The notes beneath the pieces are model-generated. The model did not search any database, had not been told where the DNA came from, and was given only the letters and a program-made list of their open reading frames with translations. A stretch of DNA of 64,000 bases. Origin: Dehalococcoidia bacterium (lineage in GTDB: Bacteria; Chloroflexota; Dehalococcoidia; Bin125). The position numbers and the translations under genes are program-made. The DNA lies in assembly GCA_965261225.1 (NCBI GenBank), contig OZ253456.1:264431-328430 (forward strand), read 5' to 3'. This document shows, in pieces, positions 10,310 to 36,882 of this stretch. Numbering within the stretch: position 1 is the first letter of the stretch; each line of letters opens with the position of its first letter.

Positions 10310-10700
10310 GCTCAGACCCAGTGCTCAAGCGCCCGATGCGGGGCTTCGAAGAGAACTATGACGAGCGCTAGCCCACCTGCTCGGAAGATGTCGAACCCGT
10401 CCATCTGGCCGTGCCGGCGAATCGGTTCGCAGGTCAGTAGGTAGCGGACGGGAAAGCAGGACAAGCTGGACCGTACTGCGAATATTCGTTTGAGAACTGG
10501 AACCATCAGCACGGACTCAACGTCTCCGGATCAACGCGATTCCACAGCGGTTCGAGTCCCACAGAGAGGACGCCAGCACCCTCCGCGCTACGCTCTGGAT
10601 TCGGAGTTAGGTACGATCTAGAGGCCAAACGGCGGAACCGGTAATTTGCTACAGCAGCCAACAGTTGCCATTGGGACAACGGAATGGTGGGGTTGGGCCT

Positions 10701-12301: not shown

Positions 12302-15300
12302 GGAGCGTCAACCACCGATCATGGAAACAGCCAGTCGGCGGCGACGACGCTGTCATTGGGCTCCTCGCTGGAAGGCAGCATCGACCCCGCGGATGACGAA
12401 GACTACTTCAAAATCGTGGCGCCATCGAACACCGACCTCTGGGTCTATACCAGCGGTGCACTCGACACCACAGGAGAACTGTCGAGGTCTGGAGGCTCAG
12501 TGCTGGCCAGGAACTATGACGGGCGTCTCGTTGACCACCCGCTGGGCTTCTCGATGCGATACCGCCTCAGCGGCGGAACCTTCTACGTCAAGGTCACCAG
12601 CCACGCAGGGAAGTACACCGGCGCCTACACGATTCATGCCCAACAAGCGCTTAGCCTCGGAGGCAGCTTCGCCAACCCAACGGAGATCAATCTTGACTCC
12701 GCGGCCGCAGGAAGCCTCTACCCGATCGCCGAATCTGAGACGGAAATCGATACGAACGGAGTCTATAGGTACTACACCATAATCGACATTGACGTCTTCA
12801 CCTTCGAACTACTCGTCCCCACCGAGGTCTGGATCCTCGTCGCGGGGAGATTCGACAGCACACTCACTCTCTTCAATTCTGATCAACAAGTACTCGCAAG
12901 CAACGACAACGGAGGCTGGACGTACAACTCGACTGCGTCAATGATCAGACGGAGCCTGAGTCGTGGCTCGTACTATTTGAAAGTTTCGGGAGACAACGGA
13001 GACGACTTCGGGCCATACGTCCTGTATCTGAAAACTGTCACTGAACCAGGAGGGTCCCTGGCTGACGCGACTCGGCTTACCCTCAACGTCCCCCAGACCG
13101 GTAATTTGGCTTCCAATACGGACCAAGAATATTTCAGCTTCACACTTGATGACGAGACCTACGCGAGCGTCTATGTCGCATCGTTCGACGGAGCGTTGCC
13201 CGTCGCTGTAAGTGGCCTGGACGCTATGACGGAGAGCTTTGAGATCACCCGGGCCGACTACTCCGACGCCGGTGAGCGTGCCGAAAGCTATTACAAATGG
13301 GGTAAGCTCCCCGCTGATACTTATAATATTTCTACTTCAACGACCAACAGTGGAGGCGGGAAGTACCTGCTCCACGTGCGCACCTCCAGGTACGCCGAAG
13401 TGGTTGACAACTGCACGACGTCGCTGACGACGACCACGAGCGACCCGTGGTACGGATGCCAGTGGCACCTCGATAACACCAGTCAGTTCGCCAATGGCGC
13501 CGAACAGGACATCAACGTCCAGGAACTGTGGGACGACTCCGACCCGTCCACCATGGGCGCGGGCATTCGTGTGGCAGTGGTCGACGACGGGATGCACTTC
13601 GAGCACGAGGACCTGACTGACAACGCCCTGACGTCGCAGAATCGTACCTATCATCGGTCACGCAGTAGCATCTACAATCCGGCCGACAGCCACGGGACTG
13701 CGGTGGCAAGCATCATCGCCGGCCGAGACAACTCATCTGGAGTTCGCGGTGTAGCCCCCAGAGCCTCCATCTTCGGTATCAAAATCCTCTCAAATGTCCC
13801 ATTCACTAACGACACTGAATCCGGCGCGATGGACCCTGAAATGTCCAACGCCGCCATATTCAGCAACAGCTGGGGACCTGTCACAAGAGGTAGACTCTTT
13901 CGACCGTCGGACGCCTGGGAACAGGCCGTAACGGGAGGAGTCAATGATGGGTTCGGCAAGAATGGAATCCTCTATGTATTTTCCGGAGGAAACGGTCATT
14001 TGGATGGTGACTACAGCAATCTGAATGGCTTTGCAAACTATTACGGCGTCGTCGCTGTGTGCGCAGTCAACTATGCCGACAAGCGCAGTTGGTATTCGGA
14101 ACTGGGGTCCAACCTCTGGATCTGCGCTCCATCCAACTCCCCCCGCGAAATTCCGGAGCTCCCTGCCATCACGACCGCCGACAACGAAGACCGATACCGA
14201 AACAGCTTCGGCGGCACCTCGGCGGCTGCCCCTATCGTCTCCGGGGTCGCCGCTCTCATACGTGCTGCCGATCGAGGCACACAGCCGACACTGAGCTGGC
14301 GCGATGTCAAGCTGATCCTCGCCAACTCGGCGCGCAAGAACGACGCGACCGATTCCGGCTGGCGAGATGGAGCGCTGAAATACGGTTCCACAACTGAGCG
14401 GTACTCGTTCAACCACGAGTACGGCTTCGGCATGGTCGACGCCGGCGCAGCCGTCGCACTGGCAAAGACCTGGACCAACCTTCCCGACATGCGGCAGATG
14501 ACCGGAACCTCAACCAATCAAGCTCAGACGATCCCCGACGCACCGAGTAGTGTCACGACAGGTAGAACGATTGAGAGCAGACTGACCATCGATGACTACG
14601 TGGAGTTCATCGAGTTCGTCCAGATCGACATCAACTTCCAGCACACCCACTTCGGACATCTCAGCGTGGAGTTAGTCTCGCCGTCGGGCAAACGGTCCTC
14701 GCTCAGCGTGCGCCGGGACGTCTACGTGGCCAACCCAGTTAATGGCCCCTTCCGATTTGGCTCGGCCCGACACCTCGGCGAAAACTCGGCCGGGACCTGG
14801 AAGCTGAGCGTGACCGATCACCGACCAAACGACACCGGAATCTTGCATTCCTGGAGCATCACCGTCTACGGACACGGCATCACGCCGAATGAGCCCGATA
14901 TAGATTCGACCACGGCAGGCGATCAGACAATCACCGTTGCCTGGAAAGCGCCGGACGACCACGGCACTTCCGATATCACCAAGTACGATCTTCGCTACAT
15001 TCGCTCCGACGCTTCCAACAAGTCCGACACCCGTTGGACCCTTCACACGGACATCACCACCGATACCTACGAAATTATGAGCCTGGAAGCCGGGGTGTAC
15101 TACGACATCCAGATGCGGGCGCACAACGATGGCGGAGCGGGTGTCTGGTCCGAGACCGAACAAGGCAACACGGACGCGGTCGCGCGCGCGACGCTCAATA
15201 CGCCGAGCGTCACGGCTCGTGCGGCTGAACTGCTCGTCACCTGGACGCCGCCGGGGACCGGACAGGTCGGGATCAGCAGATACGACGTGCGCTACATCCT

Positions 15301-18300
15301 CAGCAGCGCCACTGCCGAGGAGAAAGAAGTTGGCACGAATTGGATGGAAGAGGTGGCCTGGAGAACCGGCGGCGGCGACTTGAAGTACATCATCGATAAC
15401 CTCATGAACGGCGCCAGCTACGACGTGCAAGTGCGTGCGACCAACGCCCTGGGGACTAGCGATTGGTCGGCGACCCGAACCGGAGCGCCGCGCGTCGCCA
15501 ACCAGGCGCCCGCATTCCTTATGTCTGAAACGGGCACGCGCAGCATTGACGAGAACACGCCGGCCGGTCAAAGAATCGGCGCGGCTGTACGCGCTACCGA
15601 CTCCGACGACCGCCAATTGACCTACGACCTCGCGGGTATCGATGCCGCCCACTTTGAGATCAACAAGGACACGGGACAACTTCAGACATTGGACGAGTTC
15701 GATTTCGAGAACAGCAGGAGGACATACTCAGTCGACGTCGAGGTCTCGGACAACAAGGATGCCAACGGTGACGACGATCCCAGCGTCGACGCCACGCAGC
15801 CGGTCACGATCACGGTCGAGAACGTCAACGAGGCGCCGACGGTCTCGGGCGGGCAGGATTTCGACTTCCGAGAGGATCGCGGACGGTGGGACGTGGGCAA
15901 CTACACCGCGATCGACCCCGAGATGGACATGATCACCTGGTCGCTGTCCGGTCCTGACCGCGGCGACTTCGAGATCGACCTAGACGGCAATCTCAGTTTC
16001 CGCCAAGCGCCGGACGCCGATCGGCCCGCCGACCAAGACCGCGACAACAAGTATGAAGTCAACGTGGTCGCTTCCGACGGCAATCTCCGAGGGGAGCTCG
16101 ATGTCACGGTGAATGTCGAAGAGGTCGATGAAGCACCAGAGATTACCGGCAGGGGCGACATCGATTATGCGGAAAACAGCATCGGCGTTGTCGAGAGGTA
16201 CTCGGCCACCGATCCAGAAGGCGGGACCGTCATCTGGTCGCTGCCAACGAGCGATCAAGGCACGTTCACTTTGACGAACGGCCAACTTCGCTTCAGGTCG
16301 TCCCCCAACCACGAGGATCGCCCCAGCTATTCGGTCATCGTCCGCGCATCCGACGGCAGCCTCACGCAATCCTTGCCGATCACAATCAACATCACGGATA
16401 TCGATGAAACTGAGACCCTGACCCTCTCATCCGACCAGCCGGTTGAAAACGTGCGCCTGACCGCGACGTTAACCGAGCTGGATGAGGTCACCAACGAGCG
16501 ATGGCAATGGGCTCGCTCAACAAGTCGGAGCAGCGGCTATTCCGACATTCCCAGCGCGACCTTCAGCGATTACATGCCGGACAGCGATGATGTCGGCGAC
16601 TACCTGCGAATAACCCTCACGTACAATGACCCCCACCGGGCCGACCGAACACTAACTGCGACCACCAGTGGGCGCGTTCTGGCAGCTCCGGTGAACAACG
16701 AGCCACCAACGTTCGCGCCCGATGAAACCGGCCAGCGCAACGTCCAGGAGAACTCGGGACATCGAACAGCCATCGGCGTCGCTGTAGCGGCCACCGATCC
16801 GGAGAGTGACCGACTCGTCTACAGCATCAATGACACACACGGGAACAAGTTCGAAATCGACCGAAACAGCGGACAACTCCGAGTTGGTTCGGCCGCCAAC
16901 CTCGACCACGAGCCAATGAGCACTTATCCGGTAACTGTTTCTGTCTCCGACCCATTCAATCCCGCCGTGACGCAACGGGTGACCATAACCATCGAGGACG
17001 TGAACGAGCGTCCCGTTGCGATAGACGACATCGCAACCACAAACGAAGATGAGACGATATCTATCGATGTGGTTAATAACGTTGACGGCAGAGACTCAGA
17101 TCCCGAAAATAAAGATTTATCCGTCGAACTCACACGCAATCCGGCGAGCGGCAACGCTGAAGTCGAGGCGGATCAAACGGTCAAGTACACTCCGAAACCC
17201 AATTTCGATTGTTCAGACAGTTTCCAATACCGAGTGTTCGACGGAGTATTGAGATCTGCTCACTCTGCCACTGTAGTGGTCAACATCAACCCTCGTAACG
17301 ACCCCCCAGAGTTCGTTGGCGGCCCGTCAACTCGCCAAGTAGCCAAGAACGCCGAACCTGGCAGTAAGGTTGGTCAGCCGGTCGTTGCCTCAGACATTGA
17401 CATCGACGCCGCCAAAGAGTGCAACGACGATGAACTGACTTATCGCCTGAGGGGTTCGAACTTCTTTGAGATCGACGACAACACGGGTCAGATAGTGGTC
17501 AGCACTTTGGCGACCTTTGACCCAACAGTGACGCCCACTTACTTCGTCGAAGTGATCGCCGGAGACACGTCATTCGAGGAGGCGAGAACGGTCGTCGCCA
17601 TCAACGTCGTTGACCAGATCACCACGACAACAATCACCACCGGCGGTGGCGGCGGCGGCGGACCGCCGCCCATTCCGATCCCATCCGACGAGGAGTTCGA
17701 CTGGAATGTGACTCGCGACATTGAGTCGCTGGATCGCGACAACGACCTGCCCACCGGGCTGTGGTCGAACGGCGCGGTGCTCTGGGTTGTGGAGAATTCG
17801 GCGACCGGCGCCGACTTGCTCTTCGCCTACGACCTCAACACGGGCGAGCGTCTTGAAGAGCACGAGTTCGAACTCGAGCGGCGCAACCGCTTCTCGCACG
17901 GCATCTGGTCCGACGGCGAGCTCGTCTGGATCGCCGACAGTGGTCAGGACAAGCTCTTCGCTTACAACCTTGCAACAGGCGAGCGCGACGAAGACCGCGA
18001 CCTCGAACTCGACGAGCGCAACCGCGACCCGCGCGAAATCTGGTCCAATGGCGAGTCGATGCTGGTGCTCGATAGCGTCAAGGACGCGTTGTTCGTCTAC
18101 GATCTTGAATCGGGCCGGTTGCTCGCCGAGTTCCCGCTGGACAAGCTCAACAAGAGCCCGCGCGGGATCTGGTCGGACGGCTTCACGATCTGGGTCTCGG
18201 ACGACGGCGCCAAGCGTATCTTCGCCTATCGCATCGAAGGCGAGACGTTCAAACGCTATGAGGACCAGGAGTTCACCTTCCGCTCGCTGCTCAAGGCCGG

Positions 18301-18955
18301 CAACGGCGACGCGCGTGGGATCTGGTCCGACGGCGACGTAGTCTTCGTCGCCGACGAGCAGGACGATCAGGTCTACACGTACAACATGCCTGACGCGATT
18401 GACGCGCGGCTCGCCTCGCTCACGCTGAGCGGCGTCGAGTTCGGCGAGTTCTCGGCCAGGCAGACGGAGTATGCGGCCGTCGTCGAGGCCAGCCTGCCGT
18501 TTACCACAGTGGAAGCGGAGGCTGCGCAGAGCAAGGCCGGCATCGAGATCATGCCCGCCGATGCTGACGGCGACCCGACCAACGGACATCAGGCAGCGCT
18601 GATCGATGGTCTCGACATCACGGTTGCGGTGACCTCCGAAGATGGCTCCCGGAGACTGGTGTACACGGTCGGCATCAGTAACTGTCTGAGCGGACTCAGC
18701 GAGACGCGCCTGAACTCAGTCCAGTTCGTGGGCGGCGGCGTGGGCGAGTTGGTCGACTGTGCCCGGAGTCTCGGCGTCGATGCGCTGTATCACTACCGCG
18801 ACGGCGTCTGGGTCGCCTTCTTCCTCGATGCGCCGGAGTTCCTCAGTCACGCCTTCCGCAATCGCTTCGCCGAGGGCGTCCCGGCCGGCGAAGTACTGAT
18901 CGCCAAGCGAGAGTCCATCCGGATGGCCACGCCTGCCGTGGAGAGTCCCGGCTAG
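12302..18955 (+). CDS. Giant subtilisin/kexin-like S8 serine protease: 3-4 PPC-like domains, S8 catalytic domain, proprotein-convertase P-domain, 2-3 FN3, ~7 cadherin-like repeats, Gly/Pro linker, 6-7 WSDG beta-propeller repeats, C-terminal beta-sandwich domain.
   Basis: D (VAVVDDGM), H (HGTAVASIIAG), S (GGTSAAAPIVSGVAAL) catalytic triad. P-domain: DYVEFIEFVQIDINFQHTHFGHLSVELVSPSGKRS. DxDxDGxxD-type cadherin repeats. GIWSDGxxVWV repeats. The ORF tool's TTG start at 12356 is not credible; the frame is open from 12302. Confidence 0.75.
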   Translation, partial: GASTTDHGNSQSAATTLSLGSSLEGSIDPADDEDYFKIVAPSNTDLWVYTSGALDTTGELSRSGGSVLARNYDGRLVDHPLGFSMRYRLSGGTFYVKVTSHAGKYTGAYTIHAQQALSLGGSFANPTEINLDSAAAGSLYPIAESETEIDTNGVYRYYTIIDIDVFTFELLVPTEVWILVAGRFDSTLTLFNSDQQVLASNDNGGWTYNSTASMIRRSLSRGSYYLKVSGDNGDDFGPYVLYLKTVTEPGGSLADATRLTLNVPQTGNLASNTDQEYFSFTLDDETYASVYVASFDGALPVAVSGLDAMTESFEITRADYSDAGERAESYYKWGKLPADTYNISTSTTNSGGGKYLLHVRTSRYAEVVDNCTTSLTTTTSDPWYGCQWHLDNTSQFANGAEQDINVQELWDDSDPSTMGAGIRVAVVDDGMHFEHEDLTDNALTSQNRTYHRSRSSIYNPADSHGTAVASIIAGRDNSSGVRGVAPRASIFGIKILSNVPFTNDTESGAMDPEMSNAAIFSNSWGPVTRGRLFRPSDAWEQAVTGGVNDGFGKNGILYVFSGGNGHLDGDYSNLNGFANYYGVVAVCAVNYADKRSWYSELGSNLWICAPSNSPREIPELPAITTADNEDRYRNSFGGTSAAAPIVSGVAALIRAADRGTQPTLSWRDVKLILANSARKNDATDSGWRDGALKYGSTTERYSFNHEYGFGMVDAGAAVALAKTWTNLPDMRQMTGTSTNQAQTIPDAPSSVTTGRTIESRLTIDDYVEFIEFVQIDINFQHTHFGHLSVELVSPSGKRSSLSVRRDVYVANPVNGPFRFGSARHLGENSAGTWKLSVTDHRPNDTGILHSWSITVYGHGITPNEPDIDSTTAGDQTITVAWKAPDDHGTSDITKYDLRYIRSDASNKSDTRWTLHTDITTDTYEIMSLEAGVYYDIQMRAHNDGGAGVWSETEQGNTDAVARATLNTPSVTARAAELLVTWTPPGTGQVGISRYDVRYILSSATAEEKEVGTNWMEEVAWRTGGGDLKYIIDNLMNGASYDVQVRATNALGTSDWSATRTGAPRVANQAPAFLMSETGTRSIDENTPAGQRIGAAVRATDSDDRQLTYDLAGIDAAHFEINKDTGQLQTLDEFDFENSRRTYSVDVEVSDNKDANGDDDPSVDATQPVTITVENVNEAPTVSGGQDFDFREDRGRWDVGNYTAIDPEMDMITWSLSGPDRGDFEIDLDGNLSFRQAPDADRPADQDRDNKYEVNVVASDGNLRGELDVTVNVEEVDEAPEITGRGDIDYAENSIGVVERYSATDPEGGTVIWSLPTSDQGTFTLTNGQLRFRSSPNHEDRPSYSVIVRASDGSLTQSLPITINITDIDETETLTLSSDQPVENVRLTATLTELDEVTNERWQWARSTSRSSGYSDIPSATFSDYMPDSDDVGDYLRITLTYNDPHRADRTLTATTSGRVLAAPVNNEPPTFAPDETGQRNVQENSGHRTAIGVAVAATDPESDRLVYSINDTHGNKFEIDRNSGQLRVGSAANLDHEPMSTYPVTVSVSDPFNPAVTQRVTITIEDVNERPVAIDDIATTNEDETISIDVVNNVDGRDSDPENKDLSVELTRNPASGNAEVEADQTVKYTPKPNFDCSDSFQYRVFDGVLRSAHSATVVVNINPRNDPPEFVGGPSTRQVAKNAEPGSKVGQPVVASDIDIDAAKECNDDELTYRLRGSNFFEIDDNTGQIVVSTLATFDPTVTPTYFVEVIAGDTSFEEARTVVAINVVDQITTTTITTGGGGGGGPPPIPIPSDEEFDWNVTRDIESLDRDNDLPTGLWSNGAVLWVVENSATGADLLFAYDLNTGERLEEHEFELERRNRFSHGIWSDGELVWIADSGQDKLFAYNLATGERDEDRDLELDERNRDPREIWSNGESMLVLDSVKDALFVYDLESGRLLAEFPLDKLNKSPRGIWSDGFTIWVSDDGAKRIFAYRIEGETFKRYEDQEFTFRSLLKAGNGDARGIWSDGDVVFVADEQDDQVYTYNMPDAIDARLASLTLSGVEFGEFSARQTEYAAVVEASLPFTTVEAEAAQSKAGIEIMPADADGDPTNGHQAALIDGLDITVAVTSEDGSRRLVYTVGISNCLSGLSETRLNSVQFVGGGVGELVDCARSLGVDALYHYRDGVWVAFFLDAPEFLSHAFRNRFAEGVPAGEVLIAKRESIRMATPAVESPG

Positions 18956-23519: not shown

Positions 23520-23550
23520 GCGACTTGTCCGCGACGACGTCCAGGATGTT

Positions 23551-24928
23551 TCACTGCCGAGTAGGCGCCTGTCGGAGCCGTTGGCCCAACGAAGTAGCGG
23601 AGGCTTGAGGTTGACGACGGCCGGCAAGACGGCCTACACGATCAGGCTGATTGCCGCTCTGGCGATGCCGAGGAAGAGCAGGAAACCGAATACGTCCGTG
23701 AATGTGGTCACGACGACGGCCGATGCGACCGCGGGATCGACCCCCCATGCGGCGCAGGAACAGAGGCACCGCCGCCCCGACTGAGCCGGCGATGATCATG
23801 TTGCCCAACATGGCTACCCCGAGGACCAGCGCGAGGCCGTAGTTCTGCTTCCCGAGGATCGCAATCACTGCCACGAGGATGCCCAACCAGACGCCATGCA
23901 GGACACCGAGCACGGCTTCGCGGACCAGCAGTCGCCGGGCCGAGACACCGACGAGTTCGCCCAACGCGATGGTGCGCACGATCAATGTCAGCGTCTGAGT
24001 TCCGCCGATGCCCCCCTGCCCGGCGACGACCGGCAAGAAGGCCGCCAGCACGACTACCTGGGTCAGCGTGGATTCGAACAGGGCGATCGTCGCGGCGGCG
24101 AGGAAGGTCGTTGCGAGATTGACCGTGAGCCAGGGCAGCCGCGTGCGAATGGCGCTCCAGATCGGACCGTCCACCGACTCGCCGGCCACACTGGCGACGC
24201 AAACGGGCGCATTCGTGCGCCTCAGTTTCGGTCGACACCGACGCGACGATTGGCAGGCTGAGCGACTCGATCGGCGCGTCGCTCTGGGCCAGCGCCAAAT
24301 CGACCATGGGGATCTGTCCGAGCAGTTGATCGCCGGGTCCCACGACAAACACGTAGGTGAACATGAGCCGGTCCAGCGACAGTGCGCGAACGCTGTCGCG
24401 CGCGTCCTCGGCCGTGCCGTCGATTGAGACCAACGGATATTCGGCGACCATCAGCGAGCCTGCGCTATTGGTCGCTTGAACGTTCAGGTCGATGTCGGTC
24501 AATGCCTCGTCCAGCGTCCCGGCCAGTGCCTGCGAACGATGTAACGGCAGCCGTCGCAGTGTCGCGAGTGCATGCTGCGGGTGCATCTGCTGCAACACGA
24601 ACGTGAGCGCCTGTACCCCAAGTCGGGTGCCCACCCGCGCCGCCTCGACGGGATTCATCTGGCGCAGCATCCAGGCGACCGTGTCGGGCGACATGACGCG
24701 AACCATGGTGTCGCGGCTCGTGCGCGGCAGGCCGGAGATGATCAGGCCCATATCGGCCGGGTGCAGGCTTCGCACGCGCTCGAACGCGAGATATTCCTGG
24801 CCCGAGGCAATCAGCTCGCGGACTTCCCTGGCGATGGCAGACACTTCGTTGAGTGAGATCGCCCGGCCAGGGCGGATGCTTCTCGCCTCGAGATCCAGAG
24901 GTGGCGCGTTGTCTGTGTGGTCAACCAC
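23551..24928 (-). pseudogene. mgtE: Magnesium transporter MgtE, disrupted by a frameshift plus a short internal deletion between the CBS pair and the membrane domain.
   Basis: The N-terminal and CBS regions are good in ORF 23708..24928 up to ..EAHECARLRRQ. The TM domain (..RLPWLTVNLATTFLAAATIALFE..GGIGGTQTL..) is in ORF 23551..24348 in another frame, and the linker is shorter than in intact MgtE. Confidence 0.65.
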
Positions 24929-25005
24929 GGCGGTCCCTCCAGTGGTCTGATGAGGCGGAAACGATAGCGAGCATTGAGTCGGGAGTCGACCAGTCTCTTC
25001 CGAGG

Positions 25006-25421
25006 TCAGCGCAGAATGGGCAGCGCCTCCAAAGCGGTTTTGAACCGGCGTTGTAGGTCTCGCAGGCGCTCGGGGTCAACCTGCTGAGCAGCGCGGTCGT
25101 ACCACGGATCCAACAGGTACCAGCTGCGATTCATCTCAATCTGAATCCAAGCTATGCCGCCGTCGGCAAACCCCTGCCCGTGCCGACGAGTGATATGCCC
25201 GCCCTGGAACGGATCGATCAGCCGAATCTCCGCGCCTGGTCGACGGTCATCCACTCGTTGAGACGCAACAGCGCCTCGATCAATCGGCCCTTGAGGATGA
25301 CCTCTCGCTCGTTGGAGCGCTCCTCGGCCAGTTCTTCACGCGGAACGAACGTCCAGCCCAACGCGACCAGGAGATCGCGTGCGGGGTTGGCGGCGGGAGG
25401 AAATTCGGCGAGCGGCGCCAA
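25006..25421 (-). pseudogene. hsdR: HsdR/Res N-terminal (PD-(D/E)xK, HSDR_N-like) fragment split over two frames.
   Basis: DLLVALGWTFV..VILKGRLIEALLRLNEW (25218..25421), then ..RRHGQGFADGGIAWIQIEMN.. (25006..25254) in another frame; the helicase part is absent. Confidence 0.5.
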
Positions 25422-25716
25422 TTTGGCGCTGTGGGCTGGGAATTTGCGCCTGAGGTGTCCGGATTAGTCCAGATTTGTCCAGATTTGGATAGTTTGGGCT
25501 AGATTCTGACGGTGTTTGTCGCCGAAAATCTCGCTGGGTCTGGGAATGTTGGGGCGTTCGGGTTGAGGCTGGGGACGGTCATGGCGATCTCGCTGGTTCG
25601 CTGCGCGGGGTTTCGCGTCGGCCATTGTATGCGGACGGGCGTTCTGTTGGGGTGGAAGATCAGCAGTGCTTCACTCTGTTCAAGTCGATGGTGCTCGGTT
25701 GGACTCTCGAATCTGG

Positions 25717-26586
25717 TCAAGCATCATTCCCGCCGTTCGGAGAGTGGGCAGACAACTCCCCTCTTTGACGCAAGAGGTGTTCTATGGTCTCAATGACGCA
25801 CTTTGCCTTATACACCACACCGAGATCGATCATTTGGTGAGTCGTCACAACAGCCTTTACTGCAGCCGGGACTTCCACAAATGTCAGTTGGCCATCGTCC
25901 TCTTGCCGAAAGACTCGGCCAAGAACTCCCAGGAAATGAAACTGCTGGGCTTGTCGCAATCTGCCGTCAACTTCGCGCCATGGCCCTGCTCTGAGCAGAA
26001 AGACCGGGCTGCCGCTACTGCCGGGAAAGACCGAGGCGTCGATGAGGGAGAGCGGCTCGCCTCCATAATCGATGGACGGGTGCGTGGCGATGATGCCCTT
26101 GCGGAATATCGGCAGATTATGCGCTCGATCAAACATTCCATTTGGATAACCAACGAAGACGACGTCCTCTACAACGTCGAATGTCGCTAGGGTGTGTTCA
26201 TCGGGAATCATGTCTGTAGGGATGCTCTTGTAGAAGACTGAGATACTACGCTCCAACAGGTGATTCAGAGCGCCTCCAAGTGGAAGCACCGCAATGTCTA
26301 TCTCGTCAGAAGGGTGCCCGGTCCACTCCCAGCTCCCGTCGCTAAACGTAACTGCATATGCCTCTCCGAGTCGGGGATGTTGATCTGGACTGTCCCCTTC
26401 GCTGAGAGCGAAGGAGAGCTTCCCTGCCGTGGTTCCGGCCACCACGTGCTTGTTTGTGACGAGAAATGGACCTTCTTTCCCGTCCGCCCACTTGTGGTTC
26501 ACAATCGCACCCGTGCCAATGCTCGTTCTGGTCTGGATCCTCAATGTTGAGAACAGGAGCTGTTCAGCAAACGTCTCAACCTTCAT
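25717..26586 (-). CDS. Cytoplasmic trypsin-like (S1/chymotrypsin fold) serine protease.
   Basis: His (TNKHVV), Asp (DIAVLPL), Ser (GSSGSPVF) triad in canonical order; no signal peptide; the start ATG overlaps the stop of the upstream hsdS-like gene (ATGA). Confidence 0.8.
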   Translation of the reverse strand: MKVETFAEQLLFSTLRIQTRTSIGTGAIVNHKWADGKEGPFLVTNKHVVAGTTAGKLSFALSEGDSPDQHPRLGEAYAVTFSDGSWEWTGHPSDEIDIAVLPLGGALNHLLERSISVFYKSIPTDMIPDEHTLATFDVVEDVVFVGYPNGMFDRAHNLPIFRKGIIATHPSIDYGGEPLSLIDASVFPGSSGSPVFLLRAGPWREVDGRLRQAQQFHFLGVLGRVFRQEDDGQLTFVEVPAAVKAVVTTHQMIDLGVVYKAKCVIETIEHLLRQRGELSAHSPNGGNDA

Positions 26587-27410
26587 GCCGGCCCCTCTTT
26601 TCGAATGACAGAAGTTCGCCGACGCCCTGAGAGCAGCGCGTCCGCGATTGATGCATTGCAGATCTTCAGAGTATCGCGATGCTCGGCGTTCCGATCAACC
26701 GTCTGATCGATTGTGTGGATGACGGTGGCGATCTTCTGCTGTTCTAAATGTGGCGGCAGAGATACGCGAAGCGAGCGCACACCGTCACGTGAGATTTCCA
26801 GGAAGGTGCTGCCAGCGGCTCTCCTCTCGAGGTCGCGTTTCATCGCCGTTGCCAGGTAGTAGAGCCAGGTTCCGTCAGTTTGGGAGTTGGGGATCAGATT
26901 CTGGAAACCCTGATTGGTCGTGACCGGGATCTGGTTGACGGCGGTGGCTCCAATCGTTGCTCGACTTGTCAGCAGGACGGAACCAGCGGGAATCACTCGC
27001 AGTCCAGCGGAGGTCATCCCCTTTGCTGAAATCGTCTCTCGCGACCTTGTCAATTCCATCCCCGGCAACTCAGTGATCTCGGATGGTGTGACCCAGGGAA
27101 TGTCGCCACCCCAGTACTCCGGCTTGCTCCGCGAAGGCGTCGTCCCGCCAACAACTTCGCACACATCGCCCAAACGCACTACGTCCCAGCGGGCGGGCAT
27201 GGTTCCGAGGCCTTGGACTTGCTTCCACTCTGTGTGGCGACCGGGGAGGTCTCGGGCGAGGAGGTCGTGGAGCAGGGCGTCGCGCAGATGCTCGGTGGCG
27301 GCAGCATCGTCGCGAGCGTGACGCCGCGATAGCTGCGGCGCGACGGACTGCGCACAATCGGCCAGGGGATCAGTGCCAGGTCGTCGGCTGGGAGAGAGCC
27401 GTCGGTGCAA
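26583..27410 (-). CDS. hsdS: Type I restriction-modification specificity subunit, single-TRD (half-size) HsdS-like; start uncertain.
   Basis: WDVVRLGDVCEVVGGTTPSRSKPEYWGGDIPWVTPSEI..NQGFQNLIP..LYYL..LPPHLEQQKIATVIHTIDQ is the HsdS TRD plus conserved coiled-coil region. No hsdM in the window. Confidence 0.7.
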   Translation of the reverse strand: MHRRLSPSRRPGTDPLADCAQSVAPQLSRRHARDDAAATEHLRDALLHDLLARDLPGRHTEWKQVQGLGTMPARWDVVRLGDVCEVVGGTTPSRSKPEYWGGDIPWVTPSEITELPGMELTRSRETISAKGMTSAGLRVIPAGSVLLTSRATIGATAVNQIPVTTNQGFQNLIPNSQTDGTWLYYLATAMKRDLERRAAGSTFLEISRDGVRSLRVSLPPHLEQQKIATVIHTIDQTVDRNAEHRDTLKICNASIADALLSGRRRTSVIRKEGPA

Positions 27411-27720
27411 CGCATGTCGACATCGAATTGATGCTCGCCGGCGCGGGCGGTGATCAGCGCTCCGTTCGGATCACCCGACTTGAGGCCGATCACATTGCGC
27501 GCGCGGGCAGACGCCGCTTCAATCAGCTGGCTTCCTCCTGAACCGCTCGCAGCGCCGTCACTGGTGAGCAGGATTGCGACGCGCAGCTGCCGCAGCCGAC
27601 GGATGTGCCTCAGGCCGCGCAGTGCGGCCAGCGCCACAGCGATTCCACCCTTGGTCTCAGCGGCGCCGGCGCCGTAGATGCGGCGGTCGTCGGCCAGGCG
27701 CTCGGCGCCAAAGTAGCGAA
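27390..27720 (-). pseudogene. Internal fragment of an M20-family metallopeptidase fused in-frame to the 3' end of ddl.
   Basis: ..RIYGAGAAETKGGIAVALAALRGL..LRVAILLTSDGAASGSGGS.. matches the M20 GxADmKGG and DEExG region; the N-terminal His/Asp ligand region is absent and the frame decays after ..FDVDMRC. Confidence 0.45.
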
Positions 27721-28693
27721 TCGCCGCCACATCCAGCATGCGGTTGACCATCGCGTCATATGAGTAACCGGCCGTTTGTGCCGAGTGCGCGTAGGTTCCG
27801 GTCAGACCGAGTGAGTCCATCGAGTTGATTTCGAGGATGTACGGTTTGAGGTCCGCGTCCAGGCGTATGTCGACTCGGGCGAAGTCGTATAGCTCCAGAC
27901 TGCGAAACGCCCGCTTCGCCAGCTCTTGCAAGTCGGCGGTCTGTTCATCGGTCAGCGGCGCCGGACAGAGCTTGCCGCGCGGAGTCCGCAGCTTGTTCGA
28001 GTCGGTTTGAATCGCGTTTGGGTCCCCGTCGAGGTCGATCTCGACGATCGGCAGTACCTCGGGATTGCCGTTGCCGAGCAGGCCGATGGCCAGTTCACGC
28101 CCGGCAATGAACTGTTCAACCAGCACATGCTGGCCAAACTCGTTGATGATCGTGGCGACGGCCTCATGCAGGTCGTCCTGGTTCTGAACGGTCCGGATGC
28201 CGTAGGAGACTGCCTCCTTTTTTGGTTTGACGATCAGCGGATGCTCGCGGCTGCACTCCAGGTCCTCGAACCGGTCGTCTGGGGATGCGAAGTTTCAGAA
28301 CTTCGCCGTCGGCAGCCCGGCGGCCTGGAACATGATCTTGGCGATCACTTTATCCAGCGCCATGCCGTGAGCCTGTGGCCCGGAGCCGACGTAGGGGACG
28401 CCGAGCATTTCAAGCATCGCCGGCATGTGCGTGTATCGCGACACGCCCTGGATGCCGTAGGCCATGTTGAAGACCATGCCTGGTCGCTCGCCGGCGATCA
28501 CGCGCGGCATGAAGTCCTGCAACTGCTCAACCACGTGCATGTTGCCGTCGATGATGCGCACAGTGTGTCCGCCCGAGTCGAGCGCACGAGCGACGCGCTC
28601 AACCGTGCGAGGGTTGTAGCGCTCGCGATTCTGCGGTCCGAAGACGTTGATCACTCCGCTGGCATCACGATTGTGGACTACTGCTACGCGCAT
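27715..28693 (-). pseudogene. ddl: D-alanine--D-alanine ligase interrupted by an in-frame TGA (28293-28295).
   Basis: N-terminal ORF 28295..28693 (MRVAVVHNRDASGV..AGLPTAKF*); the same frame continues NFASPDDRFEDLE..HPLIVKPKKEAVSYGIR..LVEQFIAGRELAIGLLG..LKPYILEINSMDSLG..GYSYDAMVNRMLDVAA. Confidence 0.7.
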
Positions 28694-31780: not shown

Positions 31781-32593
31781 ACGTCCAGTTCCCCTCTGTG
31801 TTGCAGCCCAGAGCGCGTAGCCGACTCCACAACCCATCGCCGTGGCAATGATCGTCAGCAACAGTTCATCCCCGGAAAGGAACACAATCAGAGGAATCAC
31901 CACGCCGAACAGGGCGCCGGCCAGCATCCAAGTGGATCGGAGGGACAAATCGAAATGCAATCGCAAGATTTTGTTTCCCTTCTACAGGTAAGACGGATCA
32001 GCGGATGGAAAGGTAACGCGCCGACCCCAAGGTTGGTCAGGATGCGTCGGCTGACTGTGGCTCAATGCGCACTGCAGCAGTGCAACCTCCGGTCAGCTCG
32101 ATGTGCCCCGAAGCGACGACCGCATCTGGATTGTCGCGCTACCGAGTGTTCCCGCAGCGCGGAGAGTCGATGTTGTGGCGGCGTCAGGGGTTTCGGCAAC
32201 GGAAGATGATCCTGCTGCCCAAGGGTACGCGTTGATTGGTCCGGTCGTGCAGTTCGGCTTGACCGACTCATCGTCTCAGGTACGCGGGCCAGTCGCAACA
32301 ACTGCTCTGCTTCTGGGGGCTGACTTCCGTCTCGCAATCGGGAGGGCTTCACCGATACGGAGTAGAATCAGGCCCTGGCGCCCCCAGAATCTCTGCGTTT
32401 GACTACGCGACAAACACGCTGGCGCGAAGTCGAGCGACGCGATGCACTACGTGCTCAACCGGCTCCTGACGCAGATGGCGCCGGTGTTGAGCCTGGCCTC
32501 GATCCTTGTGACGCTCACCGCCTACCTCGGAGGCTTCGACACTGCGCACATCCGCCGTTGACCAGACCTCTGGGGCCAGCCTCAAGTGCCGCC

Positions 32594-34306
32594 ATGCCCA
32601 CGCTCGAATTCAGAGGCAAACAGCACATCTACGCCCACCACCTCACCGTGCCTTACAGACCATTGGTCCTCGACCCCGCGAAGTCCCACGGCGACAATGC
32701 TGGCGAACCCGACGACAACCTGATCATCCACGGCGACAACCTCGAGGCGCTTAAGGCCCTGCTTCCTCGCTACGCCGGCAAAGTCAACTGCATCTATATC
32801 GACCCGCCTTACAACACCGGCAACGAGGGCTGGACCTACAACGACAACGTCAACAGCCCGCTGATGCGAGAATGGCTTGCAAAGAACAACCCGGTCGATG
32901 GCGAAGACCTCGAACGTCACGACAAGTGGCTCTGCATGATGTGGCCGCGCTTGCAGCTATTGCTGGAACTGTTGGCCGACGATGGCATCATCTTTGTGTC
33001 AATCGACGACAATGAGCAACATCATCTCCGAATGCTAATGGATGAAATCTTCGGCGAAACCAATTTTCTGAACTCGTTCACTTGGGTGAACAATCTCAAA
33101 GGCCGGCAGTTAACTGGCCAAGGTGCCGCACGCACCCACGAAACGATACTCGCCTACGGAAAAGACATACGAGAACTTAGCGCACCCTTCCAGATAGACA
33201 TTAGTCTTGCGAAGGCAATCATGCCTGATGCATATCGCATGGGAACATATGAAAAGTATCAGGACGAAATAGGTCCATATGTAATAAAGAACCAATTGCA
33301 CAACACAAACTCTAAGGTTAACGAGGAGACTCGACCAGCGTTAGTTTTCAATATTCACTATGCACCGGAATTAAATTCAGTTCGCTTCACGGACGTTGAC
33401 TCTGATTTGCATATCTCAGGTTTCACCCGAATCCCACCCAAAGCCTCCAACGACGGCGTTCACAAGTTTCACGCTTGGCGGTGGAGCAGGCAGAAGATCG
33501 ATGCTGAGTTGCACAATCTACATTTTGAACGGTATGGTGAAACATTCCGGATTCACACGAAAATTCGAGTATTCGACGAAACGAGTCTCAAGGACCTAAT
33601 TACGAATGTCAGCAACTCCAATTCGGAACTTAAGTCGTTGTCTCTTGAGTTTCCGTTTCCAAAGCCCGCAGACTTAGTTAAAGTCCTAATCCAATCCGTC
33701 AGGCACGCAACAGCGATCTTCTTAGATTCCTTCGCCGGAAGCGGAACCACCGCCCACGCCGCACTGGCACTCAATAAGCAAGACGGCGGCAGCCGCAGAT
33801 TCATCCTCGTCGAATGCGAAGACTATGCCGACACGATCACCGCCGAGCGCGTCCGCCGCGTGATCAACGGCGTGCCCGAAGCGAAAGGTGAGGATCTCCG
33901 CGAGGGGCTCGGCGGCTCCTTCACCTATTGCACCCTGGGTGAGCCGATCGAGGCCGAACGGATGCTGACCGGTGAGACACTCCCCAACTACCACGCTCTG
34001 GCCGCGCACCTGCTCTATACCGCCAAAGGAATCACCGCATCCAGGGCGCTTCAACAGCCCACCGACGGTGATCCGTTCTACAGCGATCCTGCCACGGACA
34101 CCGACTACTATCTGCTTTATCAGGCCGATCCCGATTGGCTGCGTGGGAACGACGCGATGCTGTCCGACCAACAGGCAAGCGACATCGCCCATCGCGGGCG
34201 GGCCGCCGTCGTATTCGCAGCCGGCAAGTACATGGGTCAGGGCGATCTCACTCGCCACAACATCACCTTCTGCCAGTTGCCCTACGATCTGCATCGCAGC
34301 GGCTGA
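32594..34306 (+). CDS. mod: Type III restriction-modification DNA methyltransferase (Mod, N6-adenine beta class); the central TRD has markedly low GC.
   Basis: DPPYN motif IV (IYIDPPYNTGNEGW) precedes motif I (IFLDSFAGSGTTAHAA); 570 aa; the segment ~33000-33700 is AT-rich compared with the flanks. Confidence 0.85.
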   Translation: MPTLEFRGKQHIYAHHLTVPYRPLVLDPAKSHGDNAGEPDDNLIIHGDNLEALKALLPRYAGKVNCIYIDPPYNTGNEGWTYNDNVNSPLMREWLAKNNPVDGEDLERHDKWLCMMWPRLQLLLELLADDGIIFVSIDDNEQHHLRMLMDEIFGETNFLNSFTWVNNLKGRQLTGQGAARTHETILAYGKDIRELSAPFQIDISLAKAIMPDAYRMGTYEKYQDEIGPYVIKNQLHNTNSKVNEETRPALVFNIHYAPELNSVRFTDVDSDLHISGFTRIPPKASNDGVHKFHAWRWSRQKIDAELHNLHFERYGETFRIHTKIRVFDETSLKDLITNVSNSNSELKSLSLEFPFPKPADLVKVLIQSVRHATAIFLDSFAGSGTTAHAALALNKQDGGSRRFILVECEDYADTITAERVRRVINGVPEAKGEDLREGLGGSFTYCTLGEPIEAERMLTGETLPNYHALAAHLLYTAKGITASRALQQPTDGDPFYSDPATDTDYYLLYQADPDWLRGNDAMLSDQQASDIAHRGRAAVVFAAGKYMGQGDLTRHNITFCQLPYDLHRSG

Positions 34307-34320
34307 GCGGAAGCGCGATC

Positions 34321-36882
34321 ATGGAGCTCAAGGAATACCAATCGCAAGCGCTTGATGCGTTCTCGCGCTGGTTGGACGAGCTGCGCCAGGCGCGAGCAGC
34401 CGCAGAAGCCTCCGAGCAAGTGCTTCAGGCGCTGCCGCCGGAAGCCGTCGCGGCGGCCCGAGACTACCCGCGCACGACCTGGAACAGGCTGCGCGGCGCC
34501 GGCCAGCTCCCGTCGTCGGCCGGCGAATATGTCCCCCGCACGGATGAAGCGGAACGCCCCATCCCGCACTTTTGCTTCAAGGTGCCGACCGGCGGCGGCA
34601 AAACGCTGCTGGGCGCGGCGGCCTTGGAGCGGCTCAGCCAGCCCACCGGTCTCGTCCTCTGGTTCGTGCCGACCAGGGCAATCTATGCGCAAACGAAGGC
34701 CGCCTTGTGGAACCGCGAGCATCCGTACCGCCAGATGCTGGAACGCGCTAGCGGCGGACGGGTCAAACTGCTCGAAAAGGACGACACGCTCACCCGCGAC
34801 GACATCGCCCACTATCTCTGCGTGATGCTGATCTCGTTGCAAGGCGCCAATCGCAAGAACAACAAGGAATTTCTACGGATGTTCCGGAGTTCAGGCCGCT
34901 ATCCGTCCTTCTTCCCGCCCGACGACGATCTCTGGGCGCACACAAACCTGCTGACCAAGCATCCCGACTTGTATCAGATTGACGGCGGCGGCATGGCTGC
35001 CCAGAGTCTCGCCAACGTGTTCAAGCTCACGCGTCCGGCCGTGGTGCTTGACGAAGCGCACAAGGCGTACGGGACCGCAAAGGCTGCCGGCGACGAGTTT
35101 GTGCAATCGATCAACCGCTACAACCCGAGTCTGGTGATCGAATTGTCCGCGACGCCGAACCGCCGCGCCAGCAACGTCCTGGTCGATATCGACGGCCCGG
35201 CGCTCAAGCGCGAAGAGATGATCAAGCTGCCGATCCAGGTGCGAACCACCAAGGACACTGACTGGAAACATACGCTGGCGCTCGCCGCCGACGAACTCGC
35301 TCAACTGGAACACGCCGCCGATAACTTCGCTGAGAACAGCGGCCGATACATCAGACCCATCGCCGTTGTCCGGGTTGAACGCACAGGTAAAGATCAGCGG
35401 AATACCGACCACATCCACGCCGAAGATGCACGCGGCCATTTGCGGACGCTCGGCGTCCCCGCCGACCAGATCGCGGTCAAATCAGCCGAAGTGGATGAGA
35501 TCACCGGCGTCGACCTGATGTCGCCCTACTCGCCCATCCGCTGGATCATCACCAAGGCGGCGCTGATGGAGGGATGGGATTGTTCCTTTGCCTATGTGCT
35601 GGTCGTACTTGACAATACCCAGTCGAAGCGTGCGATCACCCAGCTCGTCGGACGCGTCATGCGCCAACCCGAGGCGCGGCGAACGGAAGTCGAGGCGCTT
35701 GATCAGTGCTACGTCTACTGCACCGAGACAACCGTTGGCGAAGCCATGTCCCACGTAAAGGACGGTCTGGAGCGCGAGGGTCTGGGCGACCTGCTTGACG
35801 ACGTACACGGCGAATCTACCCAACTGAGAATTCAAGAGTTTCAGCGGCGACCAGAGTTCGCCGGTGCGAAGATCTTCCTGCCTAAGGTATTGCACCGTGA
35901 CGCAGACGGTTGGAGCGATCTCGACTATCAGCGTCACATCTTGCCCCACATCGATTGGGACGACATTCGCATCGCCGACGTACAAAGCTCGCTTCCTCGC
36001 CGGCCATCGATCGAGTTCGGCACAATCGATCTGGACGAGCGCGGCGTCTTCGCTTCTGGATGGGGCGAAGCGGAACTGCCGGATGCCGAGCCGCTGCGGG
36101 TGTCTTGGTACGCCCGGCGTCTCGCCGACTTGGTTCCCAACCCTTGGCAGGCCGCCCGCATCGCCTCGGACATGATCGACGACCTGCGAGCAGCTGATCA
36201 GACTGACAAACAGATATACCGCCAACGTGCAACGCTGGTCGAATGGCTTCGAGCACAGGTGCGCCGCCAGATCGAGACGCAATCGGAGCGTGTGTTCCGG
36301 GGAAAACTAGGCGCTGGCGACATCCGCTTCTCGCTGGATGCTAAGTTGCCCAATCACCGGATAACGGCCGAACCGTTCAAGCGGCTGTTGCCCGCCAACT
36401 TCCACGAGTTTCAGCCGAGCCTGGGCAGGCAACTCCGGCTGTCCTTGTTCACACCGGTTATCGAAGAAGAGCTCGATTCCGAACTCGAAAAGCGGTTCGC
36501 CAAATACCTTGACGAGCGGAAGGCGCTGACCTGGTGGCACCGTGTTGGCGTGCGCCAAAGCCGCGAATACTATCTGCGCGGCTGGAAACCCGAACGGATT
36601 TGGCCCGACTTCATCGCCATGGCGGGGGAAACGGCCGGACGGCCGCATCTGCTCGTATTCGAGACCAAAGGCGACCATCTGGCGCAGACGGAAGATACGC
36701 AGTACAAGGAACATGTGCTGCGAACTCTCGAGGCGGCATTCAATCCGGGTAACGCGGTCAACGAGGATGGCGGACCGTACGGCGCGGTCAAGGTTCGCAA
36801 TGGTCCGATGCGCGGCACGTTCCAGTTGGTCTTCGAGCGAGAGTCGTTCGATGCGGTTGAGCGCGCCCTGGGACTCATCTGA
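34321..36882 (+). CDS. res: Type III restriction endonuclease Res subunit (SF2 helicase plus C-terminal nuclease).
   Basis: Walker A ..KVPTGGGKTLLGAAA.., DEAH box ..VVLDEAHKAYG.., motif VI region ..LVGRVMRQ..; 853 aa; follows mod by 14 bp. Confidence 0.85.
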   Translation: MELKEYQSQALDAFSRWLDELRQARAAAEASEQVLQALPPEAVAAARDYPRTTWNRLRGAGQLPSSAGEYVPRTDEAERPIPHFCFKVPTGGGKTLLGAAALERLSQPTGLVLWFVPTRAIYAQTKAALWNREHPYRQMLERASGGRVKLLEKDDTLTRDDIAHYLCVMLISLQGANRKNNKEFLRMFRSSGRYPSFFPPDDDLWAHTNLLTKHPDLYQIDGGGMAAQSLANVFKLTRPAVVLDEAHKAYGTAKAAGDEFVQSINRYNPSLVIELSATPNRRASNVLVDIDGPALKREEMIKLPIQVRTTKDTDWKHTLALAADELAQLEHAADNFAENSGRYIRPIAVVRVERTGKDQRNTDHIHAEDARGHLRTLGVPADQIAVKSAEVDEITGVDLMSPYSPIRWIITKAALMEGWDCSFAYVLVVLDNTQSKRAITQLVGRVMRQPEARRTEVEALDQCYVYCTETTVGEAMSHVKDGLEREGLGDLLDDVHGESTQLRIQEFQRRPEFAGAKIFLPKVLHRDADGWSDLDYQRHILPHIDWDDIRIADVQSSLPRRPSIEFGTIDLDERGVFASGWGEAELPDAEPLRVSWYARRLADLVPNPWQAARIASDMIDDLRAADQTDKQIYRQRATLVEWLRAQVRRQIETQSERVFRGKLGAGDIRFSLDAKLPNHRITAEPFKRLLPANFHEFQPSLGRQLRLSLFTPVIEEELDSELEKRFAKYLDERKALTWWHRVGVRQSREYYLRGWKPERIWPDFIAMAGETAGRPHLLVFETKGDHLAQTEDTQYKEHVLRTLEAAFNPGNAVNEDGGPYGAVKVRNGPMRGTFQLVFERESFDAVERALGLI

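Follow-up and report, generated by a model that had tools for sequence, protein, structure and literature searches.

PrrC of the EcoprrI system is an anticodon nuclease encoded between hsdS and hsdR, which is activated when Stp of phage T4 inhibits the restriction-modification (R-M) enzyme of Type I (PMC12707154). Furthermore, a set of 145 untested phage defence candidates, the PDC families, has been assembled by 'guilt-by-embedding' from genes that lie inside Type I R-M, BREX and DISARM loci (Payne et al., bioRxiv 10.1101/2024.01.29.577857). In the trypsin-MBL (metallo-beta-lactamase) module of the Hachiman, Argonaute and AVAST systems, proteolysis serves to activate a pro-effector (bioRxiv 10.1101/2025.09.03.673762). 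We describe here a locus of a Dehalococcoidia bacterium, located on the minus strand of a 64-kb stretch of contig OZ253456.1 (hereafter the window, to whose positions all coordinates refer unless a comparison locus is named), in which a part of hsdS is followed by an intact gene for a serine protease of the PDC-S45 family and by a stub of hsdR. This locus is very probably a decayed Type I island in which an orphan protease has been left intact. A first-pass annotation, made from the sequence alone, had envisaged either a new guard/effector pairing of a half-size HsdS with the protease or the debris of a decayed Type I locus. The second option is the one borne out by the present analysis, since hsdS is halved, no more than 60 codons of hsdR are left and there is no hsdM, the whole being wedged between scraps of genes for gamma-glutamyltranspeptidase (GGT), N-formylglutamate amidohydrolase (FGase) and MgtE.

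The comparison with described systems is most direct for PDC-S45 itself, whose hidden Markov model is matched over its full length and whose embedding context is that of the closest relatives of the window protease; the window copy differs from the candidates of that set in lying in a dead, truncated locus and not in an intact one. The arrangement had been taken for an undescribed one in the earlier annotation, a view that the assignment to PDC-S45, a PADLOC family drawn from R-M-embedded genes, does not support: the recurrent embedding of the protease in Type I loci is real, but it is already captured computationally under that name. With PrrC, the intact relatives share the position of the protease after hsdS and before hsdR, together with the idea of a second-line effector (PMC12707154). 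The differences are nevertheless considerable, PrrC being an ATPase-anticodon nuclease and the window protein a serine protease with no relation to it in sequence or fold; PrrC is almost exclusively embedded, whereas PDC-S45 is mostly stand-alone, and the window encodes no R-M complex. The Lit protease of prophage e14, a single-gene abortive infection system, cuts EF-Tu when the Gol peptide of T4 is present. It resembles the window protein in being a single-domain cytoplasmic protease carried on mobile elements and prophages, and provides a plausible model for substrate gating without a sensor, but Lit is a zinc metalloprotease that has no homology to PDC-S45. The trypsin-MBL module likewise links a trypsin-fold protease to a helicase-containing defence system; the window protease differs in being free-standing, with no fusion to HamA- or HamB-type proteins, and the module was rejected as a counterpart, no MBL-fold gene being found among the commonest neighbour families. 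HtrA, DegP and DegS, MarP (Rv3671c) and the V8/Spl proteases (clan PA, S1) have the chymotrypsin double beta-barrel in common with the window protein, which differs from them in lacking a PDZ domain, in an extra disordered loop and in an identity of only 14-18%. Finally, silent hsdS' cassettes, such as those of the pneumococcal ivr locus, are also truncated hsdS genes with one target recognition domain (TRD) and conserved helices, and in the present case too the TRD differs between sister strains; unlike these cassettes, the window gene is accompanied by no adjacent intact hsdS, recombinase or significant inverted repeats, and its flanks are unrelated pseudogenes.

Remains of a Type I locus

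The closest homologues of the protease (55-80% identity, five distinct loci sampled) are all located in complete Type I loci. In the labels used here, L numbers denote the comparison loci that were fetched and P numbers their proteins. P0002 in L001 is 80% identical to the window protease, P0004 in L006 61%, P0005 and P0008 in L104 and L105 58%, and P0016 in L007-L010 55%. The gene order of these intact loci is an S-like gene, hsdM, a toxin-antitoxin pair, a two-TRD hsdS, the protease, zero to three cargo genes, hsdR and a YgjP-like gene. HsdS is 404-435 aa in length (a call of 522 aa in L010 runs through the upstream DUF2442 gene) and HsdR 1038-1053 aa. The slot between hsdM and hsdS is occupied by a toxin-antitoxin-like pair, either HicAB (HicA/HicB) or DUF4160/DUF2442, except in L104, which is without it; the small genes that follow the protease often include a PIN toxin, and in L007-L010, L104 and L105 the slot before hsdR holds a small gene and a PIN toxin. 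The presence of such toxin-antitoxin-like genes in two slots indicates that these Type I operons carry several embedded cargo genes at fixed positions. A large serine recombinase follows the islands of L001 and L006, which suggests that the island is mobile. The start codon of the protease overlaps the stop codon of hsdS as ATGA in all of the loci where the protease follows hsdS (10/10), among them those of a second clade (L049, L039, L056 and L058), whose members are ~40-44% identical to the window protease. The coupling of hsdS and protease is therefore a conserved feature of the intact loci, and the succession of hsdS, ATGA overlap, protease and hsdR in two divergent clades provides the candidate family PDC-S45 with a conserved anatomy.

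The S-like gene of these loci deserves a separate mention. It encodes ~200 aa directly upstream of hsdM (L001:6096-6698, L006:4002-4604 and L007:3911-4510), is missed by Pfam, is recognised by PADLOC as a single-TRD specificity subunit (E = 1.7e-11) and is absent from L104 only; it is a genuine half-size gene standing beside a normal two-TRD hsdS in most of the intact loci.

The hsdS piece of the window is of another kind. Residues 195-435 of the L001 HsdS align to window 27302-26586 (tblastn). In this piece the tail of the central conserved helix and its linker (27302-27201) are followed by a single TRD and by the conserved helix of the C-terminus, with the stop codon at 26583-26585. The alignment extends in frame upstream of the ATG proposed as the start, residues 195-243 of L001 matching window 27302-27157 with 90% nucleotide identity; it begins in the central helix and linker with AVTERLRDALLHDLLTRGIPGRHTEYKQVRGLGTIPASWDVVRLGDVC in L001 and AATEHLRDALLHDLLARDLPGRHTEWKQVQGLGTMPARWDVVRLGDVC in the window, and ends in a C-terminal helix that again matches L001 closely. 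The methionine proposed as the start, at 27200, corresponds to an isoleucine in L001 and is thus an internal codon, not conserved as a start, and no obvious Shine-Dalgarno sequence was seen by eye in front of it. Upstream of the TRD, the last ~35 residues of the central helix run in frame with the GGT scrap, and the N-terminal conserved region is missing. When tested as a self-contained half, the piece was found to have neither a start of its own nor both conserved regions, and only one TRD. The in-frame upstream match to L001 and the isoleucine at the supposed start lead us to conclude from these alignments that an ordinary hsdS with two TRDs was severed at ~27302, within its central conserved helix, that the apparent half-size HsdS is what remains of its 3' part, and that the halved size is a by-product of deletion. 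The annotation of a single-TRD, half-size HsdS was correct in the number of Methylase_S domains (PADLOC also assigns the ORF to Specificity_I, E = 9.8e-47) and mistaken in regarding the protein as self-contained. It had also been foreseen that the hsdS ORF might prove to be a decayed fragment with its other half pseudogenised nearby; the fragment is confirmed, whereas the other half has been deleted. Compared with TRD1 of L001, the TRD of the window shows 63% identity, in keeping with the exchange that such domains are known to undergo.

Downstream of this fragment, the ATGA overlap between hsdS and the protease is present as annotated (26583-26586), with a GAGG Shine-Dalgarno sequence inside the 3' end of hsdS. 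The HsdR N-terminal fragment that had been placed after a gap of ~300 bp was likewise recovered, ~295 bp beyond the protease and without a convincing ORF in between; it is 75% identical to residues 9-68 of the intact 1042-aa HsdR of L001. The Pfam match covers positions 10-63 of 198 of HSDR_N, and PADLOC assigns the stub to REase_I (E = 1.3e-4). We infer from the extent of the alignment that the stub stops short of the PD-(D/E)xK catalytic motifs and of the motor domains; of a complete hsdR, which would encode a nuclease, an SF2 motor and a C-terminal domain, only 60 codons have remained. The fragment had been described as frameshifted, an interpretation that does not stand, the second ORF being the C-terminus of an FGase (PF05013 positions 185-219 of 219, E = 2.4e-5; TIGR02017 positions 200-256 of 263), an unrelated tail to which hsdR codon 68 is directly joined at 25222-25227. 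At the nucleotide level, the window matches L001 at 27302-27157, 26790-25748 (85%), 25533-25382 (75%) and 25386-25232 (85%); the third of these corresponds to L001 10878-11028, in the spacer between protease and hsdR, which identifies the window spacer as native. This spacer has no significant ORF, and Rfam and a promoter scan revealed no RNA family or sigma-70-like promoter in it.

The remainder of the operon was sought by tblastn with the L001 proteins in the whole 64-kb window. No match was obtained for HsdM, in agreement with the first-pass annotation, nor for any part of HsdR beyond codons 9-68, a second hsdS, YgjP, the small S-like protein or the serine recombinase. With hsdS cut, hsdR reduced to a stub and hsdM gone, restriction and modification by the window locus are dead; no R-M complex is encoded in the window, and hence nothing is left for the protease to guard, so that a new pairing of half-HsdS and protease is not supported at this site. 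With 56-59% GC at 25-27 kb and roughly 62-65% on either side, the locus has a composition in line with a foreign origin. As judged from these comparisons, window 25227-27302 is very probably a piece from the interior of a Type I R-M island that was acquired horizontally. Deletions took everything upstream of mid-hsdS and everything downstream of hsdR codon 68, and the break points were joined to scraps of host or neighbour genes, GGT on one side and FGase on the other.

The flanks were compared by blastn with L108, from a related genome. The gene upstream of the fragment is 93% identical to an intact orthologue, the 757-aa ATP-grasp-M20 fusion P0121, and is a pseudogene in the window, with an in-frame stop at 28295-28297 (from translation) and an internal deletion of 327 bp whose junction lies within 27690-27709 (L108 8000-9004 corresponds to window 28694-27690, and L108 9332-9609 to window 27709-27430). 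A second deletion, with its junction at 27424-27430, has taken the remainder of the M20 domain as well as the beginning of GGT. The GGT scrap matches L108 10411-10538, within a gene that bears the annotation G_glu_transpept, with a nucleotide identity of 84%; its peptide, DVDMRCTDGSLPADDLALIPWPIV...TLATMLPPP, aligns with the GGT fragment of L108, and the scrap abuts the central helix of hsdS at 27297-27302. The gene order of L108 is ATP-grasp-M20, GGT fragments, polysaccharide deacetylase and HAD hydrolase. Its synteny with the window resumes at 23525, and it is without window 23526-27296, so that this 3.8-kb segment is specific to the lineage of the window. The segment is a mosaic of the MgtE pseudogene (split over two overlapping ORFs, 24928-23708 and 24348-23551), the FGase tail, the hsdR stub, the spacer, the protease and the 3' half of hsdS. 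Only chance-level direct or inverted repeats were found at the junctions, with no insertion sequence (IS), target-site duplication or shufflon-type repeats. The closest named homologues belong to metagenome-assembled genomes, of Dehalococcoidia/Chloroflexi for the protease and of Gemmatimonadota for the flanking gene. Throughout the lineage, the interval from ATP-grasp-M20 to the polysaccharide deacetylase seems to be subject to gene flux and decay. The host genes flanking the fragment are all broken, and L108 also has its GGT in pieces at the same place.

A second, independent assembly, L109, was found through a cluster mate (at least 90% identical) of the chimeric ATP-grasp ORF; its flanks and those of the window locus share 97-98% identity. 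L109 3153-9045 corresponds to window 33058-27175, uninterrupted across the left GGT/hsdS junction, and L109 11691-12129 to window 25661-25224, comprising the spacer and the same hsdR stub. This shared left junction and stub indicate that the arrangement is not an assembly artefact, and that the deletions did take place, before the two strains diverged. Decay has gone further in L109, with an extra loss of 77 bp starting exactly at the hsdR/FGase joint and MgtE in even smaller pieces. Its interior (8800-12130, versus window 27302-25224) contains an hsdS half that is frameshifted and has another TRD, together with a DUF3644 gene matching PADLOC PDC-S19 (E = 1e-121), a scrap of the hsdS C-terminal helix and a 276-aa ORF of unassigned function, and there is no protease at the locus. 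The same dead scaffold therefore holds PDC-S45 in one sister genome, and PDC-S19 with an unassigned gene in the other. The simplest reading is that the interior of L109 was exchanged by homologous replacement, the conserved helix of hsdS serving as one arm and the spacer with the 5' end of hsdR as the other; no homologue of this interior was found among the other fetched loci. This suggests a replacement of cargo by recombination within a dead Type I scaffold, and the comparison of sister strains, in which embedded cargo is swapped, bears on the movement of defence genes. As the hsdS half of L109 is frameshifted and the protease gone, the pair of hsdS half and protease is not conserved between near-identical strains. 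The window locus is a gene graveyard, and should be annotated neither as an R-M system nor as a new module of half-HsdS and protease. The layout from 28.7 to 23.5 kb, set out from the ORF list and the sequence, is given in Table 1 together with a neighbouring Type III pair.

Table 1. Reading frames and assigned features around the protease gene, with window positions
Feature	Position	Strand	Evidence
Ddl-like ATP-grasp ORF, ending at in-frame stop	28693-28295	-	ORF list
Continuation ORF with partial M20 peptidase domain	28126-27179	-	ORF list, Pfam
ORF with single Methylase_S domain	27410-26583	-	Pfam E = 7.5e-29
289-aa Trypsin_2 protease ORF	26586-25717	-	Pfam PF13365
67-aa ORF with weak HSDR_N match	25421-25218	-	Pfam E = 5.8e-4, below gathering score
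82-aa ORF, FGase C-terminus	25254-25006	-	PF05013, TIGR02017
ATP-grasp (Ddl-like)-M20 fusion pseudogene	27430-28693	-	L108 blastn, translation, Pfam Dala_Dala_lig_C and partial Peptidase_M20
GGT remnant, 128 bp, left flank	27297-27424	-	L108 blastn
3' half of two-TRD hsdS, as aligned	26583-27302	-	tblastn with L001 HsdS, Pfam, PADLOC
Intact PDC-S45 serine protease	25717-26586	-	PADLOC, Pfam, alignment, AlphaFold2
Native protease-hsdR spacer	25407-25716	-	partial match to L001 spacer
hsdR 5' stub, codons 9-68 of about 1042	25227-25406	-	tblastn with L001 HsdR, Pfam
FGase C-terminal remnant, right flank	25006-25222	-	Pfam, TIGR02017
Frameshifted MgtE pseudogene	23551-24928	-	ORF list, Pfam MgtE_N on first ORF
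Type III Mod	32399-34306	+	PADLOC MTase_III E = 2e-148
Type III Res	34135-36882	+	PADLOC REase_III E = 3.5e-184

The protease and its family

The protease is the one gene of the fragment that has been preserved whole. Its residues 1-274 match positions 11-286 of the 293 of the PADLOC profile PDC-S45 (E = 6.9e-84, 279 bits), and Pfam recognises Trypsin_2 (38.3 bits versus a cut-off of 27.6, E = 2.9e-9); NCBIfam gave no match. The predicted catalytic triad is His47/Asp97/Ser191, with the nucleophile motif G189-S-S191-G-S-P194 (GSSGSP). H47, D97 and GSSGSP are invariant or nearly so across an alignment of 39 members, and all are kept in the window protease, which deviates from the consensus at 4 of the 80 strongly conserved columns; three of these deviations are common to P0002, its closest relative, so that the sequence gives no sign of decay. 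The AlphaFold2 model (pLDDT 84, pTM 0.83) is a chymotrypsin-like double beta-barrel with a disordered insertion or loop at residues 231-252 and no additional domain. The top Foldseek matches are MarP, DegP, DegQ, DegS and V8/Spl (probability 1.00, E = 1e-7 to 1e-5), and a sequence profile search of the PDB yielded nothing significant (best E = 0.017). Neither a signal peptide nor a membrane anchor is visible in the sequence when read by eye. The PADLOC scan returned PDC-S45 and two marginal matches to retron type XI reverse transcriptase (RT)-protease proteins (E = 0.011 and 0.018), which are confined to the active-site region and were rejected as evidence of relationship; no homology to PrrC or RloC was found. 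Elsewhere in the searched literature, PDC-S45 is mentioned a single time, for a match in a Sinorhizobium prophage.

One member of the closest clade departs from the catalytic motif. P0004 (L006:8001-8870) has Asn in place of Ser191 (GSNGSP) in an otherwise intact locus, and is either an inactive pseudo-protease or the product of a sequencing error.

The family comprises 3732 clusters at E <= 1e-3. Its distribution was assessed in a sample of 80 metagenomic, 4 genomic and 8 viral loci that had been found through conserved peptide patterns, and the loci were scored with locally built HsdM, HsdS, HsdR and YgjP profiles; a scan of genome contigs with the single protease provided only 4 distant loci. 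Type I embedding was observed in the five distinct loci of the closest clade and in six from other clades. When restricted to unbiased loci, that is, those not chosen for closeness to the window protease and having at least 1.5 kb of flank on both sides, Type I genes adjoin the protease in about 3-4 of 30; they are also beside it on three short contigs (L056, L058 and L070). The position itself varies, the protease lying between hsdM and hsdS in L070 and upstream of hsdS in L087. When the two closest ORFs to either side were assigned to Pfam families, Methylase_S was the commonest with 8 ORFs, together with HSDR_N with 6; the others, helix-turn-helix proteins, integrases, PIN, TIR, HEPN and other DNA methylases, are a mixture such as is typical of mobile or defence regions. 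In a neighbour-joining tree, the members embedded in Type I loci fall into at least three clades and are mixed with ones that are not embedded. The stand-alone members adjoin IS elements, toxin-antitoxin pairs or an Mrr-like gene; one shares an island with a HEPN protein and an enzyme of Type IIG, and others are carried on plasmids of Nitrobacter, Kocuria, Arthrobacter, Bacillus and Acinetobacter. A distant member of Shigella phage SfII (L112, KC736978.1, 40312-40971; 31% identity over 76% of the query), annotated as hypothetical, is located between an IS911 copy and an HNH gene near the right end of the linear record of this temperate phage, a position typical of accessory genes. The recurrent linkage to R-M genes that the first-pass annotation had proposed looking for is thus real in one respect, the hsdS-hsdR position recurring in the intact relatives, and fails in another, most sampled members not being beside R-M genes. 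It can be inferred from this distribution that the protease is an autonomous accessory gene, probably anti-phage, which has been recruited repeatedly into Type I operons.

Candidate roles of the protease

Our preferred proposal for the function of the family, a tentative one, is a substrate-gated and autonomous mechanism of anti-phage defence. The protein would be a self-contained cytoplasmic serine protease, an accessory anti-phage gene product without a sensor domain. Gating would probably occur at the level of the substrate, a phage protein or a host factor being cleaved only during infection, in the manner of Lit. Substrate gating is the most economical solution for a bare protease domain that must be harmless alone in many genomes. 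In several lineages the gene may have been recruited behind hsdS, where the ATGA overlap would tie its synthesis to that of HsdS and the recruitment would add another layer of defence, or a reserve for cases in which restriction is inhibited. The survival of the window protease beyond its R-M host locus argues for an autonomous function.

Several points weigh against the decayed-island interpretation or against the defence role assigned to its protease. The searched literature contains no experimental report on any PDC-S45 member, and the function of the family is that of a candidate only, so that membership says nothing about mechanism. The dN/dS of the protease against L001 is 0.34 (all other pairs are saturated at synonymous sites), which is rather high for an enzyme and could reflect relaxed constraint in the lineage of the window. 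The upstream promoter of the operon, which precedes hsdM in intact loci, is gone, and a scan of 23-29 kb for sigma-70 consensus sites found no sigma-70-like site around the locus; the protease may not be expressed, or may still be made if transcription reads through from upstream. The comparison sequences are metagenome assemblies. Lastly, if an intact Type I system is encoded outside the 64 kb, it might make use of the half-HsdS, or the protease might act together with it.

Among the alternatives to an autonomous, substrate-gated protease, a guard of the PrrC type survives best, although we regard it as unlikely. The protease would then be a latent toxin held by HsdM, HsdS and HsdR and freed by a phage anti-restriction protein, with abortive infection through proteolysis as the outcome, and the window copy would be an orphaned effector, constitutively silent or dangerous. 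PrrC is a textbook precedent (PMC12707154), and the slot of prrC between hsdS and hsdR is occupied in every locus where the protease follows hsdS; the ATGA coupling to hsdS is retained across two divergent clades, and Type I embedding has arisen in at least three clades of the family tree. Set against this, PrrC occurs almost only in Type I loci (bioRxiv 10.1101/2024.01.29.577857), compared with the small fraction of unbiased PDC-S45 loci given above, and PDC-S45 has no homology to PrrC. Many copies stand alone on plasmids, in prophages or beside IS elements, and must therefore be controllable without an R-M complex. The window copy has remained whole although the 64 kb encode no partner for it, which argues against an unrestrained toxin. 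A more elaborate version of this idea, which we consider unlikely as a whole, is that one clade of PDC-S45 would be a true Type I R-M-coupled effector, the proteolytic counterpart of PrrC when restriction is blocked, that its synthesis would be matched to that of HsdS by the ATGA overlap, that the hsdS helix and the hsdR 5' end would act as homology arms for the exchange of embedded defence cargo, and that the window protease would have been kept by selection after the loss of its R-M partner.

It is less probable still that the protease serves in restriction alleviation or housekeeping, degrading HsdR or another subunit upon entry into a naive host or after DNA damage. It would in that case be a portable substitute for ClpXP, which controls Type IA and IB systems, and an establishment factor instead of a defence gene. 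This notion is in keeping with the established proteolysis of HsdR by ClpXP for EcoKI and EcoAI (PMC12707154), with the serine recombinases that mark the intact islands of L001 and L006 as mobile and with co-translation with HsdS, which would put the protease at the complex; a second predicted hydrolase, the YgjP-like protein, already follows hsdR. Yet ~90% of the sampled members are without nearby Type I genes, some being carried by a temperate phage and by small plasmids that have no R-M genes, and the Asn that replaces the nucleophile Ser191 of P0004 means that catalysis is apparently dispensable in the fully intact L006. A functional minimal module, in which the single-TRD HsdS would dimerise and use HsdM and HsdR encoded elsewhere, with the protease as its dedicated partner, is highly improbable: half-size HsdS proteins, engineered and natural, can function as dimers, the reading frame 27410-26583 is open with TRD and C-terminal helix intact, and the genome outside the 64 kb could hold HsdM and HsdR, but the ORF starts with a peptide derived from GGT and has lost the conserved N-terminal region, the ATG at 27200 is neither conserved nor preceded by an obvious ribosome-binding site, all neighbours are pseudogenes and, at 97-98% identity, L109 has its hsdS half frameshifted and the protease absent.

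Other features of the window

An Rfam search of 23-29 kb produced no matches, and a terminator scan of the same interval nothing above chance. The only methyltransferase found in the window belongs to a complete Type III R-M pair ~5 kb away from the locus (32399-36882, plus strand), located in a low-GC patch (50.7% at 33-34 kb). In L107, a more distant relative, a 232-aa N6_N4_Mtase gene, which may be a fragment, stands alone at the position of the Type III pair. On the other side of the locus, the plus strand carries a 2199-aa ORF at 12356-18955, and the corresponding neighbourhood of L108 encodes giant surface proteins of the cadherin/fn3/S8 type.

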